A DNA stretch of 64,000 nt from Eledone cirrhosa (taxonomy: Eukaryota), in assembly GCA_964016885.1 (NCBI GenBank), contig OZ024757.1, positions 26,412,001-26,476,000 on the forward strand, given 5' to 3'. A program made the position numbers and the translations under genes. Shown in pieces: positions 3,119 through 63,599 of this stretch. The notes under the pieces are model-generated. The model worked only from the letters and a program-made list of their open reading frames with translations. It did not search any database and was not told where the DNA came from. Numbering within the stretch: the first letter of the stretch is position 1; the number at the start of each line of letters is the position of its first letter.

Positions 3119-3196
3119 ATAGAGGTATAGACAGACAGACTGGCAAACAGATATTTGATATCGAAATATATTCTAAATATTTCTTTATAAATAAAT

Positions 3197-3260
3197 ATTT
3201 CTTCTGATGAATGAAGACAGACATAAATATCTGACTTCAAGAAACCACTGGTAAATGAAT
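3197..3260 (+). ncRNA. Type-I hammerhead ribozyme motif
   Basis: CTGATGA (3204), stem II tgaag/cttca, GAAA, stem III acca/tggt, GUA triplet; stem I imperfect. Confidence 0.7.
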
Positions 3261-4144
3261 TATCTTATGTTGTTTTTTACATAACTAAAAAGCTCTGTAG
3301 CCTACATAGAGCACTCTCTTTTCCTTTACCTTTCCTACGGAAATACTTCATTGTTATATATATATATATATGTGTATATATATGTGTATATATATATATA
3401 TGTATATATATGTGTGTATATATATATATATTTACAGGTAATAGATTGTAGGAAAATCATGAAGGTAGAGATGTTGATATTGAATATTCCATATTTATTA
3501 ATAATTCCAACATATATATATATATATGTACATATGTATATATGTGTGTGCATGCACAAACACACACATGCCATATGATCTACATTTATGAAATTTTTCC
3601 CAAAAATAAAAAGGGAAAAAAAATATTCTTTTAATAATAAAATAAATATTTGATAAATCAAATTTTAAAAAATCTGAAATTCCGATATGCATTTTTTTCT
3701 TTTTTATTTTGTTTTTTTTTTGTTTCATTAAAATAAAATAAAACCCCCAAAATATAATAATTAAAAAAAAAAGATTTTAAAAGTACAAGGAAGGAGGTGG
3801 GAGGGGGGCTATATTCTGTTAGTAATACATATATGAATATGTTTTAAGCTGCTCTGTGTGGTTAATATAACCAAGAATATTTTACTAGTGGTACAGAATA
3901 TGTTTTTTAGTTCTACGTATTGAGCCTCAGGTGCTCTAAACCAGGATTTCATTGTCAAACTGAGTTTATATACAATCAAAAGATAGAGTTATTTTAAATA
4001 AAACAGCCACAACAGCTACAATAATATATGGTCTAATGCTGTGTACTGTATGTATGAGAAATTGTAAAAAGGAAAAGAGAAATTTGAAGTCTCAGAAATA
4101 TAACTGTGGTAAATAACCAGGAACATTATCAAGTTTATGGTTAA

Positions 4145-4336
4145 AGGCGGTGGATTGGCAGTATCGGGAGAGGGTCGGACAACATGCTTTGTAGCACAGA
4201 GTTACGCCCCTTTCTGATCTGAGTTCAAATCCTGCCGAGGTTAACTTTGCCTTTCATCCTTACAGGGTCGATAAAATAAAGTACCAGTAATGCACTGGGG
4301 TAATTGCTGGCCTTGTGCCAATAGTAGAAACAATTA
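4145..4336 (+). mobile_element. SINE family 1
   Basis: ggcggtggattggcag head, gagttcaaatcc B box, same body and tagaaacaatta tail. Confidence 0.9.
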
Positions 4337-4351
4337 TCAAGTTTATACAGA

Positions 4352-7068: not shown

Positions 7069-7450
7069 ACTGCTCTTCAGTAACAAGTACATCTCCTTGT
7101 CAAGCTTCTGTGGCCTTTTAAAAAGAACGAGCCCTCGTGAGCTGGAGTGGCTGTTTCTGCATGTCTCCCTTGCTATCCTCCAGGACAACATTTTCTCCAT
7201 TCTGTCCAGGGCCTATGAGAGGTTGGGTCCAGCCGGTACTTTGTTCCTGGACGCAAAAGCTAAGAATGCCCCCACAGCAACCATGCGACATCCATTTTGA
7301 GAAAAAAAATTTTGCCTGCTTCAGGCCGCCATGCAAAATTTCTCGTGGGGGCCCTGATTCTGTCCACTGGGAGCATGAGGTGGACTAACCCTTAATTGAG
7401 AGTGAAATTGATTGTTAAACTTAGGGGGAAATAGTTCTTTAGGAACACTA

Positions 7451-7618
7451 ATAACTGTTTCTACTTTTGGCACAAGGCCAGCAATTACCCCAGTGTATTA
7501 CTGGTACGTTATTTTATCGACCCCGGTCGGATGAAAGGCAAAGTTAACCTCGGCGGGAATTGAACTCAGGCCGTAAAGAGGCATAACTATGCTGGGAAGC
7601 ATGGTATCCGACCCTTTA
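7451..7618 (-). mobile_element. SINE family 1
   Basis: Reverse complement of the same consensus. Confidence 0.88.
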
Positions 7619-8164
7619 CACTGAACAGTCAGTTTCTAAATGTAAAAGAGCTGAGGCTGATCACATATGGTAGGCATAGCTCATGACCAACAGACAAACG
7701 AGATGAGATAACAATGTTATTTTGTGTGTCTATTACTTGTGTCTCAAAGGTATATTATGGCTGGAATTTAATTTTTTTTTTTTTTGTCCTTTCTGTTAGC
7801 TGGTTACATATATACATTTAATTAAGAAAAATAGTATTTATTTGGTTTATTGTTAACCAAGGCACATAGTGACCACACACACTCTCTCTCTCTCTCTCTC
7901 CCACACATACACATATATATACACACACCACACATATATATATACATATATATACATATATATACATATATATATATACCCCACTCTCCAGAGCGTGAAA
8001 TTAATAAACATTCGTTGTACTGCCTCTCTGTTTTGTTCCTGTTCAAATTTTCCATTATATATATATATATCAATATATATATATACTGCCAATTCAACTT
8101 TTCAAATACAAGTCGATGTTGTACGGTATGTCAAATCTATTTATCTATAAAACTGTTTATATTG

Positions 8165-8304: not shown

Positions 8305-8707
8305 AAGTAATTAAGTCAAATATTTAAAATTTGGCTTCGTTTATTAAAGATGTACTGTGCTTAGATATATATTTCGGTGACAGCCATCATTAGCTGTGAC
8401 CTCTTCAGGCAGTCCGAATTGGTGTGGTAGAGACAGGTACACATGTTGTTAAAGTGTTTTACTCTGTCAATACTCCGATATGTCCAGCTCCTGGTTGGGG
8501 TGTTATTTCTCTGAGGAACTGGAATCATATGAATTCGAACAAACGAATTTCGGCATCATAGGACACTCTCTCCTCCCATTGGTCAGTTTAAATATTTGAC
8601 TTAATTACTTTATTTTACATTACTCCGGAGTAACCAAACCAACCTGCGTACTTCGTCGAGTGGTCCAATCTGCATACTGAGGTGTCGGTAAACAACCAAC
8701 ATATACT

Positions 8708-8755
<48 letters not shown>

Positions 8756-9067
8756 AAACAAGGACAAGTGGTTACTCCTTCATTACGTTTATTGGTTGGT
8801 GACGCGTGTTTCGCCACTGATCAGCTGAAGGTTTGATCTGTATTGATCTAGCCCGACTCTGTAATCCACGGCACGTCAAACCCCTTATAATTGTAATATA
8901 TATATATACAGATTCACACACGCACATACATATCGACAGTCGATCAACTTTCGTCAAATCGGACCAAGGAAACAATGTTTCCATTGGTCTTTCCAATTAC
9001 TAATACTATCTATCGGTCGCAACTCCAGGTAGAAGGAGCAAAATGAATAAATATATATATATATATG

Positions 9068-9405
9068 CAAAAGTTCTATTTAAAGTTGTTGGGATACAAC
9101 AAGTAAATATTTTTATAACTGATATGAAGCACTCGACAAATTTTTGGAGTAGATATACGATATTAATAAATGGAAACTATATTTATAAAACCATATTTAT
9201 TTCATTATACATATTTCAGGGATACAGCCTCCAAAAGTAATGGTTGTATTTTAAAGGGTACGTCAAACCTATTTGTAAAACTGTTATATATTGTATTTTG
9301 TCTGATGAAGGCATACCATAATTTAATGTGGTATCCCTGAAATATAATATATATAATGAAATAAATATGGTTTTATAAATATAGTTTCCATTTATTAATA
9401 TCGTA
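9068..9405. mobile_element. Fold-back element family E with hammerhead motif
   Basis: 9153-9225 is an inverted copy of 9331-9406. Relatives at ~8040-8275, 40528-40740, 2819-2990 and 39153-39320. Confidence 0.8.
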
Positions 9406-9917: not shown

Positions 9918-10152
9918 TAAGATCAAAAGATGGTTAAATGAGTTCCATGTATTTTATTATGCGCATTTCAAAAACAAATATCATCATGCAATAACATGAT
10001 ATTTGTTTTTGAAATGCGCATAATAAAATACATGGAACTCATTTAACCATCTTTTGATCTTATATATTATGTATACTCCAGTCCTACAAACTGTAGAGTG
10101 CTTCTTATCCGATATCTGCATTGCTTTATTGTACTACAATAAAACTCACCTC

Positions 10153-10157
<5 letters not shown>
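9918..10157 (+). mobile_element. Fold-back element family B in (TA)n
   Basis: 67-bp arms 9918-9984 / 9996-10062, 11-nt loop, ~95-bp tail. Confidence 0.85.
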
Positions 10158-10196
<39 letters not shown>

Positions 10197-10580: not shown

Positions 10581-10778
10581 TAGGAAAAAGTATGACCCCG
10601 ACCGCAGAGCTCAAGCCGTTTCGACGGCTATTTCTAGACTGAGTCCAGAAATAGCCGTCGAAACGGTTTGAGCTCTGCCGTCGGGGTCATACTTTTTCCT
10701 ATTTCCCACTCTACTACCCTAAGTATTGAGTACTCTGGTGCGTTATGGTCCATCTGATTCCTTACCACATTTCCTTTG

Positions 10779-10780
<2 letters not shown>
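10581..10780 (+). mobile_element. Fold-back element family A
   Basis: Near-perfect palindrome 10581-10701 plus the same tail; (TA)n on both sides. Confidence 0.88.
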
Positions 10781-11900: not shown

Positions 11901-12102
11901 GGAGAAAGTATGACCCCGACGGCAGAGCTCAAGCCTCCTCGACGGCTATTTCTGGACTAGTCTTTAGTCCAGAAATAGCCGTCGAAACGGCTTGAGCTCT
12001 GCCGTCGGGGTCATACTTTCTCCTATTACCCACTCTACTACCTTAAGTATTGAGTACTCTGGTACGTTATGGTCCATCTGCTTCCTTACCACAATTCCTT
12101 TG

Positions 12103-12103
<1 letters not shown>
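11899..12103 (+). mobile_element. Fold-back element family A
   Basis: Palindrome 11899-12025 plus the same tail; (TA)n on both sides. Confidence 0.88.
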
Positions 12104-14055: not shown

Positions 14056-14434
14056 AAAAAGAGACATAGAGGAAGAATTGACTGTCACCCATACATCTCA
14101 TTAAAGTCATGAGGACACCAACATGATATCTAATGTGTCTTGGACACTTATTTAAAAATCTGGTGGGCCCATCCCTTCACCAGATTGGAACACAGTCAAT
14201 TTCTTCCAGAGAAGGAAAAAGAAAGTTAGAAAAAGATATAGAGGAAGAATTGACTCAAGTACTGGACTGCTACTTTTTTTAATCATCCCCGAAAGGATTA
14301 AAGGCAAAGAAAACCTTGGCGAGATTTGAACTCAGAAAGCTGGAATATGTACTGTAAAGCATTTTATCCAACATTCTAAGAACTCTGCCAATTTGTTGCC
14401 ATTTCTCACATTTATGCCATTGTTATTGTGTTAA

Positions 14435-14630
14435 GGGCGGTGGATTGGCAATATCAGTAGAGAGTCGGATGCCATACTTTGCAAGCATAGAGTTACAGTC
14501 CTTTATGATCTGAGTTCAAATCCCACCGAGGTTAACTTTGCCTTTCATCCTTACAGGTTCGATAAAATAAAGTACCAGTAATAAACTGGAATAATTGCTG
14601 ACCTTGTGCCAAATGTAGAAACAATTATTA
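14435..14630 (+). mobile_element. SINE family 1
   Basis: Full-length copy. Partial or degenerate copies at ~12905-13021, 14255-14400, 15148-15240, 47061-47105 and 52280-52410. Confidence 0.88.
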
Positions 14631-15477: not shown

Positions 15478-15917
15478 ATAATAATTGTTTCTACTTTTGG
15501 CCCAAGGCCATCAATTACCCAGTACATTACTGGTACTTTATTTTATTGACCCCGTAAGGATGAAAGGCAAAGTTGACCTCGGCGGGATTTGAACTCAGAC
15601 CGCAAAGGGACGTAACTATGCTGGAAAGCATGGCGTCCGACCCTCTACCGATACTGCCAATCCACCGCCCTAATAAATAATAATAATAATAATAATAATG
15701 GTTTCTTATATAGGCACAAGGCCAGTAATTTTGGTGGAGGGGAAAGTCGATTAAATCGACCCCAGTGCGTGACTGGTACTTTATTTTATCGACCCCCGTA
15801 AGGATGAAAGGCAAAGTTAACCTCGGCGAGATTTGAACTCAGATCATAAAGAGTTGTAACTCTATGCTGGAAAGCATGGCGTCCGACGCTCTACCGATAC
15901 TGCCAATCCACCGCCCT
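15478..15917 (-). mobile_element. Two tandem SINE family 1 copies in (TAA)n
   Basis: 15478-15670 (short form) and ~15695-15917 (long form with extra ggtggaggggaaagtcgattaaatcgacc). Confidence 0.9.
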
Positions 15918-20257: not shown

Positions 20258-21433
20258 TGAATGAATATTACATAATTTATCTACTAAATTTCGTAAAAAT
20301 AAATAATTTAAAATTGACTTCTTTTCAAAGTTGCACTTCCGGTATATCGTTGCTACCACCACCACTTCAACTACCATATATATAGAAAGAGAGAGTGTGT
20401 GATGTCAACACTTCCAGTGGCGATCACTTAAATAAAAATACTAATTTTCTGTCACTAATTTTCTCCTAATGCAGTTTATATATAATATCGTCTTTTTTTA
20501 ATGTATCATGGATTACGTTACTGATTACTTAAGACAGTGTAACAACGTTTTCGTTCAATTTCTGTTTATATTGTCAATTACAATTTTATTTGATGTGTCA
20601 TATCTACATGTTTATATACTTGCGTATAATATCAATATACACACTACACATGCTAGCAGAAAACCACCTGAAGGGTGTTTTTTCTGCTAGTATATATAAC
20701 AAAGAAGGTGTGGTAAGAAACCAGGTGGACCATAACGCACTAGAGTAATCGATACTTAGAATAGTAGAGTGGGTAATAGGAAGAGTCAGGACCACACATA
20801 CATACATACATTCCTCTAACTTATATATATAAGGAACAAGGGGCTGTGTAGTTGATAAAGTGTATTTAGAAATAAAAGGAAACCACAAACAAGAGATAGG
20901 TCCCCTCTTCAGTTGTCTGCTGGCGGTCTCAGACATTTCAACGCATTAAAGATAATATGTCTATATAGGGATTGTAACATCCTGTTAATGTAGGTTCACC
21001 AGAGTGAGCACTCGATGCTTAGTTTCCAGAGTAGGGTTAGATCAATACAGATCGAATCTTGAGCTGATCAATAGCGAAACGCGTGTCACTACTCCATAAA
21101 CATAATGAAGACATAACAAATCATCCTTTTATTACTATTGTGTTGTTTCCTTGAACAAGACCTTTTATTTCACATTGCTCCAGTTTACTCAGCTGTAGAA
21201 ATGAGATGATAGGGACTGGGGTCCCTATCATACCACTGTAAAGTGGTCGTGGAGGGGCCACGGCAAAAAAGCACCCAGCACTCACTGTAAATGAGGTTGG
21301 TGTTAGGAAGGGCATCCAGCTGTAGAAATCAAGCCAGAATCAGTTCCCATCCCACCCTTGCAAGCAGAGAAAAAGCGGACATAAAATGAAATGATGTTGG
21401 TGATGATGATATATTTATGCATATATATCTATA

Positions 21434-24919: not shown

Positions 24920-28757
<3,838 letters not shown>

Positions 28758-29090
28758 TATTTAAAAAAATAGACGTGTGACACATGAGTTGTGATATATT
28801 AGTAAAAAGGAGAAGAAAATGGTGACAAAATTTTCCCAGTGAAAAATAGATTAATTAGGAATAAGTATAAATTAGTAATAAGTATTAGTTAGTATTCTGT
28901 TTTAGTTTTAAGTTTTTACCGGTTGGGCATTTCTTATGCTTTTCAAAAATAATTTTGAGATAGAATGCTAGTGATTTTTTCTCTAATCTCAGATTAAAGC
29001 AAAAATCACGAGCACTCTATCTTAAAATTATATGTATTATATATATATATTATATAAATTATATATATTATATATACATATATATTATAT

Positions 29091-29237
29091 TAGTGAAGTA
29101 ATTCCGTCGGAAAGGTCCAGGATAAAAGAGTGCTCTATGTAGGTTACAGAGCTTAATAGTTATGTAATAAACAACATAAGATAATTATTTCATTTACATG
29201 TAAATGAAATAATTATCTTATGTTGTTTATTACATAA
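29091..29237 (-). mobile_element. Fold-back element family D
   Basis: Palindrome ~29160-29237 (centre tttacatgtaaa) with tail 29091-29159; same family at ~3190-3352 and ~30570-30665. Confidence 0.8.
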
Positions 29238-31955: not shown

Positions 31956-31975
31956 AGCTTGCATTATTGTAAAAA

Positions 31976-32169
31976 GGGCGGTGGTTTGGCAGTATTGGCA
32001 GAGTGTCGGACGTCATGCTTTGATGCATAGAGTTATGGCCCTTTCCATTCTGAGTTCAAATCCCGCCGAGGTCAACTTTGCCTTTCATCCTTACGGGGGT
32101 CAATAAAATAAAGTACCTGTAATGCACTGGGTAATTGCTGGCCTTGTGCCAAAAGTAGAAGCAATTATT
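31976..32169 (+). mobile_element. SINE family 1
   Basis: Full-length copy; attattgtaaaa flanks both sides (probable TSD). Confidence 0.9.
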
Positions 32170-60800: not shown

Positions 60801-61244
60801 TGCATCTAGGATGTCATTCCAATCCCCCGCTAGAAGCAGGGAACGCGACGTTCCCAGAAAAGTCTCCAAACGCTGGAAGAAGTCGGGCCGTTCAGCTCCG
60901 AAAGGGGAGTAGACGGCGACCAGTCTCAAGGCCGCACTTTCACTACTGCCAACGTCTAGCACCAACAAACGACCCTCCGGGTCCGAGTGCACAACCTGTA
61001 CGGCAAGACCCAGGTGTTTTTGCAGCAGCACGACAACCCCACCCCCACCTCCAGGTTGACAGAGAGATGCATGCACCTCAAAGTCATCGAAGGTGGGGGC
61101 CAGCTGCCGCATGACGCTGATTCGAGTCTCACAGATAACCATTACATTTATACTACATGACCTGAGGTCATTTAGAAGCTTTGCTTGCTTCCAAGTTGAG
61201 CCCAGGCCACGTGCATTCAAACATCCTACTCTTAACACATCCAT
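57807..61244 (-). CDS. ORF2: APE endonuclease + reverse transcriptase + C-terminal CCHC finger (1145 aa)
   Basis: APE motifs CLNARGL, ICETR, AGDWN, SYLDRF, TDHK and Tx1-typical PGYWKLN. RT motifs KSPGLDG, FRPITLLNTELKILAK, LDQSKAFDRV, RQGCPLS, YADD. C-terminal CPRC...ETVAHALVQC. No stops. Confidence 0.97.
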   Translation of the reverse strand: MDVLRVGCLNARGLGSTWKQAKLLNDLRSCSINVMVICETRISVMRQLAPTFDDFEVHASLCQPGGGGGVVVLLQKHLGLAVQVVHSDPEGRLLVLDVGSSESAALRLVAVYSPFGAERPDFFQRLETFLGTSRSLLLAGDWNDILDARWDYAGACPNRGGCNSLKGLLDRFNLVDRYRLDFPTVPTWTWRNHSGQSRSYLDRFLVRSKDRDILSCPEMRTVGYTDHKLVTCVVNLEKTHRQGPGYWKLNLSLPAKETYRNRISRLVKERLTGAIVNNRWWASLKREIRTESISYSKMLAANRNRNEKELTGKLEEAIKSEDVARVLASRTALNQFFDAKHEGCVIRSKIRALGNEGAKAVGWARVTEAKSGNRSTIRSLQDEDGRVIREPKQMCEAFQKHFARLFGGGEGPGRGVDFGPYLDGLPRLSNKEAESCEGPISADEIGDALSQCSRRKSPGLDGIPYELYLAMPVFFSELLEAVYCNWQQNGRIPCSVAKGVVTLVRKDENKGDSINNFRPITLLNTELKILAKVLAKRLALVVGGLVGDAQTCAIPSRSIHDNLHLMRYIIERVGNKPGFGGALINLDQSKAFDRVDHGYLDAVLAAAGFGPVFRGWITALHSNHICSRIKVNGYLSKPFEITRSIRQGCPLSSLLYVLTLEPLLRKLELLQGIPLEPGLSKAVSAYADDVTVMVSTDSEIEAIGTLLEEYERLSGAKLNREKSIGLQLGTWRGKPMPPDGVVGHWTEGPVKLLGVWFGPDLQVEKNWNEVTNKVFALTQKWAKCKLSLKGRAEVANIYIASVTYYRLTVVPCPKETLTTMERMLFQFLWKKRPPMVRRSICCQQPSKGGLGMPWLMMRRHALRLRHLQVFLTGQPVWAPFVKRAFPRLVSLTELQSWVKQRSGKLGDWHTECAQALRALWQAGRAIGGESTSSFYRGLVASRGDDTLGESLDMEEDELASLFGRTFGPGPMDNFQKSLAWQCYRGALPVRERLYRHGRPGRDPSKKICPRCVRHEETVAHALVQCPGVADLWGYAEQLLSRVAPIKLTAESVMTIKPPPLFTKEAKAVFLCVIAMLKEVVWWTRLKGLRSGNFLSGHSLVYFFRYHFGRRIRMEREVLGHRQFYERWVIVARMARVNGPSLYTIL

Positions 61245-61277
61245 GTGGGCGGCAGAGCCAAAGGAGAGTGTAGAGAC

Positions 61278-63158
61278 CTACCTTTCCGCTTCCCGGGGTT
61301 CGGGTTGCACGACTTCCATGGGGTCGGGGGTGTTGGGTGAAGGGGTGTCTTGTGGTGGTGTGGGGTCGTCGGTGTGTGGTGGGGTTGGGGTGTTTGGAGT
61401 TGTGTTGGGGAGGGGAAGGGGAGGGGGAAAGCTTTTTAGTAGGACGCGGTTTATGGGTTTGACAGAGGGTGGTCCTACGTCCTCCTTAAAATCCTTTTTT
61501 AGTTTTTGGTAGAGGTTCATTGGGATTTTTATTAGTTTTAAATGTGGGTGGTTTTCTGATGAAACAAAGTTTACACCTTCGGTTTGTACCGAAGGATTAT
61601 TGTATATGAGTTCATTTAATTTATTATTGTTTCTGTTGATGTAAGTATAGTGTAATGTCTTTTTTTCCGATGGTGTGAGTGTTTCGAAGAGGGGAGGGGC
61701 AGGTTTGGTTTTGTTTGTTGCTGGAGGGGTGTTTTCTGTTTTGTTAGATTGTGTTGCGATTTGGGTGGGGGTTGTTTGTCCTTGTGTGTTTTGCACATGT
61801 TTTCTTTTTTTCCTTTTAATCTGTCTGAAGGACTCCGTTTCTTCCTCCGAATTCGTTGGGTTATCTTCAGTGTTGGAGGGAAGAGGTATGTTTGCTGGTA
61901 ATGTTTCCGTGTTGGTTTTCTTTGTGGGGGAGATGGATGTCACTATGTTAGACTGTGTTGTGTGTTGTGTCTGCGGTGGTTGTGTTGTTTTATTGAGTGA
62001 GAGGTTGGGTGGGCCTGTATTTTGTTTTGGGGTAATGTGTTGTGACTGTTTGTGTTGTGGTGGTGTTGTGGTGTTACTGAGGGACGGGTTGGGTGGGACT
62101 GAGTTTTGTTGTTTGTTTATCTGTTGTGGTGGTGGTGGTGGAGCTGGTGTTGGTAGCAGGGTTTTCTTTTTGTTGAGTTGGGGACAAGCGGCCTTCAGGT
62201 GCCCTCTGCCTGCACAGATATGGCAGGACGGCCTTCTCCCCTCCACGCTAATGTTTATATACCCGTGGTCCTCTAATAGGATTCTGTCGGGTATTTGGGC
62301 GATGCGTTCAGGCTTCATTTGTACTACCAGCTCTATACCTGTTCCACTGAACGCATTGCCTGTGGTTTTCCCAATGGAAATCACGTTGTCATTCACTGGA
62401 TCGATGAAGCCAGCTATGAGCCAGCAGTAGTCCACATCTGGCATCATTGCATCCAGCCATATGCGTTGAGTTTTTTTCCCCATATAAGATGGATAAAAGG
62501 TGAAATTTTTCGAACGAATCGGTGACAAAGCACATTTTTTTGCCGCCGATTCGTTCTTCATGATAATTGCTAGGCTTCCATACAGTCTGTCTTTTCTTAT
62601 GAAAGTTGTTTCATTCAGTACTTCTGCGAGTACTGTTTTGATATCTGCTTGAGAAGGCTGTTCAGGTTTTTTTGTACTGTTGTTGATGGTCCGAAACTTG
62701 ACCGTTCGGCTTTCAATGTCTTTCGTGAATTCTTGAGGCATTTTTACCAATAAAATACCATTCTCACCTTCACTTATGTATTGTTTTGCGTCCGTGATCC
62801 TTCGTACCACATCTGAAATGTTTTCCGCTATATAAGTCAAAGATTTCTTTGTTTTCTGTGCAAAAGAAATCTTGTCGTCTGCTTTGTTTTCTGATATTAT
62901 GTTATTTTCAACTGTTATTTTTTTGTTTGTTGTGTCTTTGTTTGTGTTATTAGTATTGTCATGCAATTTTTCAAATTTTTTTTTTTCGTTGTTTTCGTCA
63001 TTTAATTTTTTTTCCTCCGCAGATTCGTCCGTTTTTATTTTCATTTTTCCTTCCTTCTCTATGACGTTAGTTGGGAAGGAAGGGAGGACTAAAGCGTGCG
63101 AGCTTACAACTCTTACCGCTGTCCCCCCACCACTATTTTCGTTCGCTGCGTTTAACAT
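61278..63158 (-). CDS. ORF1: gag-like nucleic-acid chaperone with one CCHC zinc knuckle (626 aa)
   Basis: Uninterrupted ORF ending 33 bp before ORF2. CHICAGRGHLKAAC fits C-X2-C-X4-H-X4-C, followed by a P/T/Q-rich low-complexity region. The start codon is uncertain. Confidence 0.9.
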   Translation of the reverse strand: MLNAANENSGGGTAVRVVSSHALVLPSFPTNVIEKEGKMKIKTDESAEEKKLNDENNEKKKFEKLHDNTNNTNKDTTNKKITVENNIISENKADDKISFAQKTKKSLTYIAENISDVVRRITDAKQYISEGENGILLVKMPQEFTKDIESRTVKFRTINNSTKKPEQPSQADIKTVLAEVLNETTFIRKDRLYGSLAIIMKNESAAKKCALSPIRSKNFTFYPSYMGKKTQRIWLDAMMPDVDYCWLIAGFIDPVNDNVISIGKTTGNAFSGTGIELVVQMKPERIAQIPDRILLEDHGYINISVEGRRPSCHICAGRGHLKAACPQLNKKKTLLPTPAPPPPPQQINKQQNSVPPNPSLSNTTTPPQHKQSQHITPKQNTGPPNLSLNKTTQPPQTQHTTQSNIVTSISPTKKTNTETLPANIPLPSNTEDNPTNSEEETESFRQIKRKKRKHVQNTQGQTTPTQIATQSNKTENTPPATNKTKPAPPLFETLTPSEKKTLHYTYINRNNNKLNELIYNNPSVQTEGVNFVSSENHPHLKLIKIPMNLYQKLKKDFKEDVGPPSVKPINRVLLKSFPPPLPLPNTTPNTPTPPHTDDPTPPQDTPSPNTPDPMEVVQPEPREAER

Positions 63159-63599
63159 TTCTGTTAGACGATTGAAATTTTTTACACAAAATTTTTTAAA
63201 ACAGGTTTTTCACCTCTAGGAGGGGTAAAGATGAGCTGACCCACCGCCTGACAGTTCAGACGGAGGGTCAAGCTACACAATTGTATCAAAATTAAGTTTG
63301 AACTCACAAAATTTCCTCAATAAATTTGAACAAAACTTCTGTGCGAAGTGAATGACATCCACACTGTAGAACAGACGACAGCTAGATTAATATATAGATA
63401 GATAGATAGATAGATAGATATACACAATAAGGTAACACCAACCACATTTACAGTGTATGCTGGGTGCTTTTTGTCATGACACCTACACGATGACTTTACA
63501 GCGTGAGCTGGGAGCTTTTTTGTAGTGATACCAACTCCACTACATTACAGTGTGGGCTGGGGACTGGAACAAAAGTGTAAAAGCATTGGAGAAGGGTGC

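Follow-up and report, generated by a model that had tools for sequence, protein, structure and literature searches.

Penelope-like elements (PLEs) of the Hydra clade are about 3 kb long, encode a reverse transcriptase (RT) with a C-terminal endonuclease that carries DKT, CxCX5C and CxxC/CxH motifs, and insert into (TA)n targets; according to the accessible text of their description, a 5′-truncated copy, accompanied by a truncated one in inverted orientation and by a tail on one side, is the usual anatomy of Penelope insertions (Craig et al. 2021, PMC8557442). In the rotifer Adineta vaga, head-to-head inverted pseudo-LTRs (pLTRs) of Penelope with a palindromic junction, an optional tail and an initiator-like pLTR motif, TCACT, have been explained by self-priming on an antisense template, according to the sections available to us (Arkhipova et al. 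2013, PMC3846280). For the anole element Poseidon PAc, the parts of the in vitro study that we could use report that both target strands are cut and extended, that two RT start sites bound the tail, that a dimer is predicted, and that ribozyme cleavage is not needed (Frangieh et al. 2024, PMC11167929). Type I hammerhead ribozymes occur in PLE pLTRs, among them that of Schistosoma Cercyon with a U3-A8 core, a known PLE variant, and opposite-strand ribozyme pairs 100-700 bp apart were noted in the consulted portion of the same survey (Cervera and de la Pena 2014, PMC4209133). Non-LTR retrozymes, as far as the available part of a recent preprint describes them, are head-to-tail tandem units with a whole ribozyme in each (bioRxiv 2026.07.22.740005).

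We analysed a window of 64,000 nucleotides (64 kb) from Eledone cirrhosa (contig OZ024757.1) that contains ribozyme-bearing palindromes of five families, here called A to E. Family A resembles the Hydra clade in all of the characters given above. Compared by motifs with the available description, it lacks the canonical pLTR hammerhead of that clade, its core being U3-A8 or C3-A8, reads RWR instead of RWK (in its longest copy, L148), has a tail of about 80 nt rather than 30-40 nt, and occurs as tens of thousands of very short head-to-head pairs (PMC8557442). With PAc, which belongs to a different clade, the palindromes would share two RT starts that bound the tail, extension of both strands, and an uncleaved RNA template; the origin of inverted repeats and a cap-derived G are not addressed in the accessible part of that study (PMC11167929). 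The A. vaga elements have the same head-to-head pLTRs, palindromic junction, optional tail and initiator-like motif, but an extra G and an asymmetry between the arms here point to a sense, capped template that was primed twice, as opposed to the antisense template proposed in the part of that work we draw on (PMC3846280). A second primer from the other target strand, microhomology end-joining and a 5′ untemplated G are also features of LINE-1 twin priming, and in the available sections untemplated G at full-length 5′ ends of L1 and SVA is read as a copied cap (PMC4859970, and PMC11702581 for twin priming); whereas in L1 inversions it is another part of the RNA that is copied, the starting points of the two primers here would be no more than 80 nt apart and one stretch would be copied from both, which yields a palindrome. 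Family A shares with Cercyon the type I pLTR ribozyme and the U3-A8 core, and differs from the PLE hammerheads in the consulted part of that survey (PMC4209133) by its 5-bp stem III, its loop II of 31-33 nt, and a putative transcription start inside loop II.

Results

Two retrotransposon ends joined head to head

The sequence at 10581-10701 is self-complementary at 114 of 121 positions and forms a near-perfect palindrome with (TA)n runs on both sides. It is genuine, and consists of two 3′ ends of a Penelope-like retrotransposon of about 3 kb placed head to head in (TA)n. The centre of this copy, at 10641, lies 19 nt ahead of GAAAC, and both arms stop 18 nt 5′ of that motif. A preliminary description of the window had recognised the 3′ half of a hammerhead in the right arm, and GAAA, stem III, GUC and a G-rich stem I strand are indeed present there; it had also placed the centre within the ribozyme near stem II, which agrees with our position in loop II and with removal of the 5′ half, although the letters that it gave, GAAACGGC, have to be replaced by GAAACGGT. 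The window contains four family A palindrome copies and one tail-only piece, as follows.

10581-10640, minus strand: tail-less inverted arm, running from the pLTR end (3′ end of the element) to the start site A+1
10641, plus strand: untemplated G ahead of A+1, the palindrome centre, likely a copied RNA cap (parent base T)
10642-10701, plus strand: sense arm between the putative transcription start, in loop II, and the pLTR end
10649-10686, plus strand: predicted type I hammerhead 3′ half (a long natural copy folds to a three-way junction)
10649-10657, 10660-10663 and 10663-10681, plus strand: 3′ strand of stem II, GAAA, and stem III, respectively
10682, plus strand: base after which GUC cleavage is predicted; the stem I strand follows at 10683-10686
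10702-10780, plus strand: tail of about 80 bp, on one arm only, equal to 5′ UTR sequence ahead of the ORF in the near full-length copy L148
9556-9739, plus strand: family A copy with a shortened tail arm, the tail-less arm extending to A+1
11901-12103, plus strand: family A copy with a few additional bases at the centre
40228-40424, minus strand: family A copy of a different subfamily, its variants mirrored between the arms
20699-20782, minus strand: family A piece, tail alone

Exact matches to a 29-base family A core number 36,161 across the 3.0-Gb genome, as against none for the reversed control. Contigs from public sequencing runs, which may derive from the assembly's own sample, span family A centres, so these centres are not only a feature of the assembly.

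The parent element

Searches with sequence upstream of the arm recovered long family A copies of up to about 3 kb, in which broken ORF pieces encode an RT, then a CxCX5C linker, then a GIY-YIG-type domain. Such pieces were found in 8 long, broken copies, and their translations, read by eye, contain the DKT, CxCX5C, CxxC and CxH motifs of the Hydra clade, the last two around E and N. RT and GIY-YIG endonuclease lie on one ORF, as in EN+ Penelope-like elements, and family A also shows the 5′ truncation, the inverted 5′-truncated copy and the optional tail, identical to what follows the pLTR, that are traits of those elements. Pfam and PDB searches with the ORF gave no significant match; among its Atlas neighbours (0.96-0.98), HTH_animal, RVT_1 or GIY-YIG occur in 20-100% of members. 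The longest copy, L148, starts within the tail, whose sequence continues into the 5′ UTR and ORF, and a whole upstream direct pLTR is absent from the 8 long copies. Arms occur with or without the tail of about 80 nt, and junctions vary between copies. On motifs matched by eye to the published clade description, and on its insertion into (TA)n, we would file family A as a Hydra-like Penelope element, and as Hydra-like only; its head-to-head repeats and one-sided tails are already known Penelope anatomy. A non-LTR retrozyme was ruled out, as the copies are head-to-head pairs or single arms and not head-to-tail tandems. Other Penelope-like RT ORF pieces lie beside two of the long copies (L144, minus strand, about 2224-1550; L148, minus strand, about 6399-5500).

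A U3-A8 hammerhead in family A

In 48 of 56 long arms the 5′ half of the family A hammerhead is UUGANAA (U3-A8) and not CUGANGA, with position N7 taking all four bases and the rest constant. The genome-wide search for this half returned 4,960 matches; among the matches listed, U3-A8 accounts for 91 of 100, C3-A8 for 9, and G8 (C3-G8) for none. Searches of family A with CUGANGA gave only chance, chimeric or unrelated-repeat matches, and the copy with gacccc-CUGANGA-gacggc that the preliminary description had suggested looking for was not found, family A using UUGANAA instead. The idea that family A has no ribozyme was dropped once the U3-A8 core appeared in long copies. An Rfam scan of the window showed no hammerhead among the matches listed (150 of 405), which are miRNA models under gathering score, mostly on microsatellites.

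Folded without constraint, a long natural copy forms a three-way junction. Over 10 long copies the stems are 92% paired, as against 26-57% when slid; these copies contain no double-sided (compensatory) change, and one divergent copy retains stem II through paired changes. With its three stems, conserved core, 3-8 pair and NUH site, the modelled hammerhead appears real in structure. The UUGANAA half of the long copies and the three-way-junction fold together place the family A centre inside this predicted hammerhead, within loop II (31-33 nt).

The arm boundary and an extra G

We measured arm ends in 169 family A arms taken from regions not selected by centre. The distance from GAAAC was 0-10 nt in 20 arms, 11-22 nt in 124, 23-39 nt in 8 and greater in 17, so that 25 of the 169 pass 23 nt. 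The wall sits at the A of T(T/C)AGTC and is not confined to a single base, ends ranging from +8 to -4. Where both arms end at the wall and the centre is one base, that base is G or C in 45 of 50 cases among the matches listed (50 of 197), and the parent base at that place is T in 93, C in 6 and G in 1 per 100 read-through copies listed (45/50 against 7/100, Fisher p about 5e-25). At a control position 3 nt further downstream, all 50 centre bases are the templated A or T, and 0 of 50 are G or C. From these counts we infer that A+1 is likely the transcription start in the pseudo-LTR and the extra G the copied 7mG cap. The site lies on the 3′ strand of an inner hairpin in the predicted fold of loop II, so a structural stall may add to the family A wall. 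At three family A junctions (L178, L182 and L232) runs of 13-17 T stand immediately 5′ of the start site, perhaps from untemplated A on the cDNA end, or from slippage.

Boundaries in families B to E

The window copies of the other families are listed below.

9920-10158, plus strand: family B palindrome (9920-10060) with tail, centre in loop II, atypical for B
33479-33745, plus strand: family C palindrome (33479-33656) with tail; the family boundary, between TT and AGTTT, is 5 nt ahead of the core
29094-29237, minus strand: family D palindrome (29160-29237) with tail, centre in stem III, atypical for D
3195-3350, plus strand: family D single arm with a whole hammerhead, CUGAUGA at 3204
9066-9404, plus strand: asymmetric family E pair (palindrome 9159-9402), its sense arm with the whole ribozyme, CUGAUGA at 9302

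Each family has one boundary with an untemplated G, and we call these boundaries initiator-like on the general initiator consensus, which we take as given. The boundary lies in loop II in A, in stem I in C, and 60-90 nt upstream of the core in B, D and E, whose hammerhead cores are canonical (known here from their ribozyme-bearing ends). In family B, 1,865 centres fall between TC and ATATG, about 70 nt upstream of CUGAUGA, as against 59 within stem II and loop II (by a pattern with a gap of up to 30, outside which the window copy, with a gap of 44, falls). Among the 50 family B centres listed of 1,865, at least 8 have a G that is not derivable from the parent C, 7 are ambiguous, and none reads on upstream of the boundary. 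Family C has 328 palindromes centred between TT and AGTTT, where the parent base is T; G or C occupies 15 of 16 one-base centres among the 50 listed of 328. In a subfamily related to D, 11 of 13 centres between TC and ATATAG have a G; 28 family D palindromes are centred near stem III, and other D arm ends lie widely scattered between start site and core. In family E, 3 of 5 arms that end at A+1 (between TC and ACTATCC) have a G, and 100 palindromes are centred at that place, mostly via a short self-complementary stretch. The G evidence of B and E is weaker, being confounded by microhomology and parental C. The counts come from listings made by eye with search patterns of unequal stringency, so ratios between sites are rough. 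Taken by family, they indicate that the hot spot follows the G-marked site and not the ribozyme.

For the window copies, what had been described beforehand is mostly right: the family B centre lies ahead of GAAA (in loop II), the family D centre 2-3 nt 5′ of the cleavage site, and the inverted arm of the family E pair, which carries the tail, ends in stem II. The position given for family C also stands, but its supposedly intact core (at 33594 in the window) is a point variant, most C arms having CAGAAGA (U4A) with a CUU site, a sequence that suggests a possibly inactive or unusual hammerhead. The extension from these copies to their families is what fails. The window palindromes of B and D are atypical of their families, and loss of the CUGAUGA half is no general rule, CUGANGA being retained in 15 of 22 B arms, 35 of 47 D arms and 29 of 34 E arms.

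Other repeats of the window

A sixth palindrome (family F, 57196-57345) is self-complementary at 146 of 150 positions and adjoins (TA)n; no ribozyme core was seen in it, and no relative was found among the genomic regions compared. A further hammerhead-bearing family is joined head to head with A arms at L027, L044 and L050 (about 1200-1512), and occurs in the window at 8408 and 41044 on the minus strand. Whole type I hammerheads with a long stem II and a palindromic stem III lie in short TA-flanked repeats at 2923 (minus), 8173 (plus), 39257 (minus) and 40623 (minus). A LINE with two long open frames occupies 57807-63209 on the minus strand; one frame (1,156 aa) has endonuclease, RT and zf-RVT Pfam matches, and the upstream one (643 aa) has a zinc-knuckle-like motif and no Pfam match. 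At 56076-56828 (minus) there is a LINE ORF remnant, its 3′ part by look, which we take to be RTE-type. An abundant dispersed repeat of about 190 bp is present at 2173-2358, 4135-4337, 7445-7619, 14423-14629, 15480-15671, 31964-32169 and 41268-41460, and 25370-28770 is a degenerate (TA)n array of 3.4 kb with a core of 7% GC.

A probable origin from two cDNAs of one RNA

We think it probable that the palindromes are two cDNAs copied from one RNA that was primed twice, each run off at the capped start and the two then end-joined. Under this model a single cut in (TA)n would supply a primer from each of its sides, and an enzyme, perhaps a dimer, would extend both on the same RNA template from two RNA sites, the pLTR end and the tail end; each cDNA would likely run off at the capped RNA start. 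Initiation near the RNA 5′ end would give cDNAs of 60 and 140 nt, both halting at the cap, and with them the mass of short palindromes; from the 3′ copy both arms would run further. The two cDNA 3′ ends would be trimmed and joined by microhomology-mediated repair, sometimes via ribozyme stems. With a start in loop II, the first ribozyme copy of a family A transcript would be without its 5′ half. The retroelement arms include the uncut ribozyme, which the cDNA has passed intact.

A single cDNA could also run off at the capped start, fold back and self-prime its second strand, later deletions blurring the centres; we regard this as unlikely. Self-priming has already been inferred from palindromic junctions in rotifer Penelope, in the sections available to us (PMC3846280). 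It would account for the pairs that are symmetric within 3 nt (27 of the 67 scored among 69 short family A pairs), and it predicts equally well that both arms belong to the same subfamily, which they do in 60 of 63 pairs as against 21% by chance. In 25 of the 67 pairs, however, the tail-less arm exceeds its partner by more than 3 nt (in 16 by more than 10 nt), the tail arm being the longer in 15, and fold-back from a tail-bearing cDNA cannot give a longer tail-less arm. Nor can fold-back from a tail-less cDNA produce a tail, and yet, of 9 long insertions that have an inverted end next to them, 3 carry the tail on the short arm alone; arm lengths in the 9 differ by up to 2.4 kb. Some of the asymmetric pairs could stem from later deletion at the centres of the palindromes. 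Also against fold-back, an A arm is paired head to head with an arm from another family at three loci, and this second arm begins each time at one and the same initiator-like site (the pattern search that recovered these loci favoured such joins); G occurs on both arms flanking centres of 0-3 nt, and the predicted cDNA fold leaves the final 5 bases unpaired. Many pairs are therefore incompatible with simple snap-back of the cDNA, which had been put forward as the general origin of the palindromes.

One RNA primed twice fits both the subfamily match and the partners of the long arms, of which 7 of 9 likewise extend beyond the start site and none ends at it. Family A junctions show microhomology, templated duplications and poly-T inserts, as end-joining would leave.

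What sets the palindrome centres

The preliminary description was right that the palindromes are ends of ribozyme-bearing retroelements. It went on to propose that the stems or cleavage end of the ribozyme make the cDNA snap back, which would give the ribozyme a structural role in integration. The hot spot of family A does lie within the ribozyme. The joining sequence belongs to stem III in about 22 of the 50 short A palindromes listed (of 170, by eye), roughly ten times its uniform share by a hand estimate, and in about 8 of 28 D palindromes; those of A may be primary joins or later deletions. However, these 170 palindromes of one A subfamily, centred between stem III and stem I and so spanning stem III and the cleavage site, compare with 874 or more at the start site, and the enrichment at stem III, though present, is minor beside it. 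The cleavage site is the start of 5 of 23 short tail arms (p about 0.005), and of 5 of 98 tail arms; a second set of arms, however, has only 2-6 of 76 such ends and no peak, and about 18 of the 50 listed of 170 centres fall there, near the third expected from pattern geometry by a hand estimate. Across counts, the evidence for enrichment at this site is mixed and weak.

The mapping of centres that had been suggested as a check, here with 169 A arms and pattern counts, puts the main peak at the G-marked site, whose place relative to the ribozyme differs by family; that the hairpins set the centres is not supported as the main rule. The ribozyme is whole in most arms of B, D and E, the proposal leaves the extra G unexplained, and ribozyme mutants insert normally in vitro in the accessible part of the PAc study (PMC11167929). 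As a main rule, snap-back at the ribozyme is refuted by the per-family centre counts, a scaffold role in integration does not hold, and we rate this proposal as very unlikely; ribozyme stems contribute only minor microhomology.

It is highly improbable that the boundary is instead a place where RT is halted by RNA structure and appends a non-templated C: the family A wall does lie inside the inner hairpin of loop II, but the G is position-specific (0/50 three bases away), five families stop at a pyrimidine-A motif in unrelated structural positions, and the strongest local structure is downstream of the wall. Barely credible is a MITE-like unit copied whole from a palindromic master, as the best matches to the full palindrome share one centre only under a whole-palindrome query that favours identical centres, while unbiased copies have diverse junctions, G on either arm, subfamily variants mirrored in both arms and a long coding retroelement parent; the junction diversity and this parent rule out a palindromic DNA transposon.

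Discussion

Our results lead us to favour, somewhat over its negation, a broader proposal: that Penelope-type elements routinely use two adjacent start sites on one capped RNA to prime both ends of a break, and join the cDNAs cap to cap, inverted pLTRs with a one-sided tail being one product. Palindrome centres would then map each family's start, and in family A the start would have moved into loop II, so that the first ribozyme copy cannot self-cut. Our literature search, outside of which lay most subscription papers and supplements, found no link of Penelope inverted junctions to the cap.

The origin of the inverted repeats and tails of Penelope elements is named an open problem in the accessible text of the Hydra-clade description (PMC8557442); here the evidence from thousands of independent junctions, spread over five families, speaks for a sense RNA template that carried a cap and was primed twice. 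Searches with CUGANGA overlook an abundant ribozyme family, that of family A. If the proposal is true, the in vitro result of two start sites would be tied to genome anatomy, and transcription start sites would be readable from DNA alone, at base resolution, in tens of thousands of palindromes.
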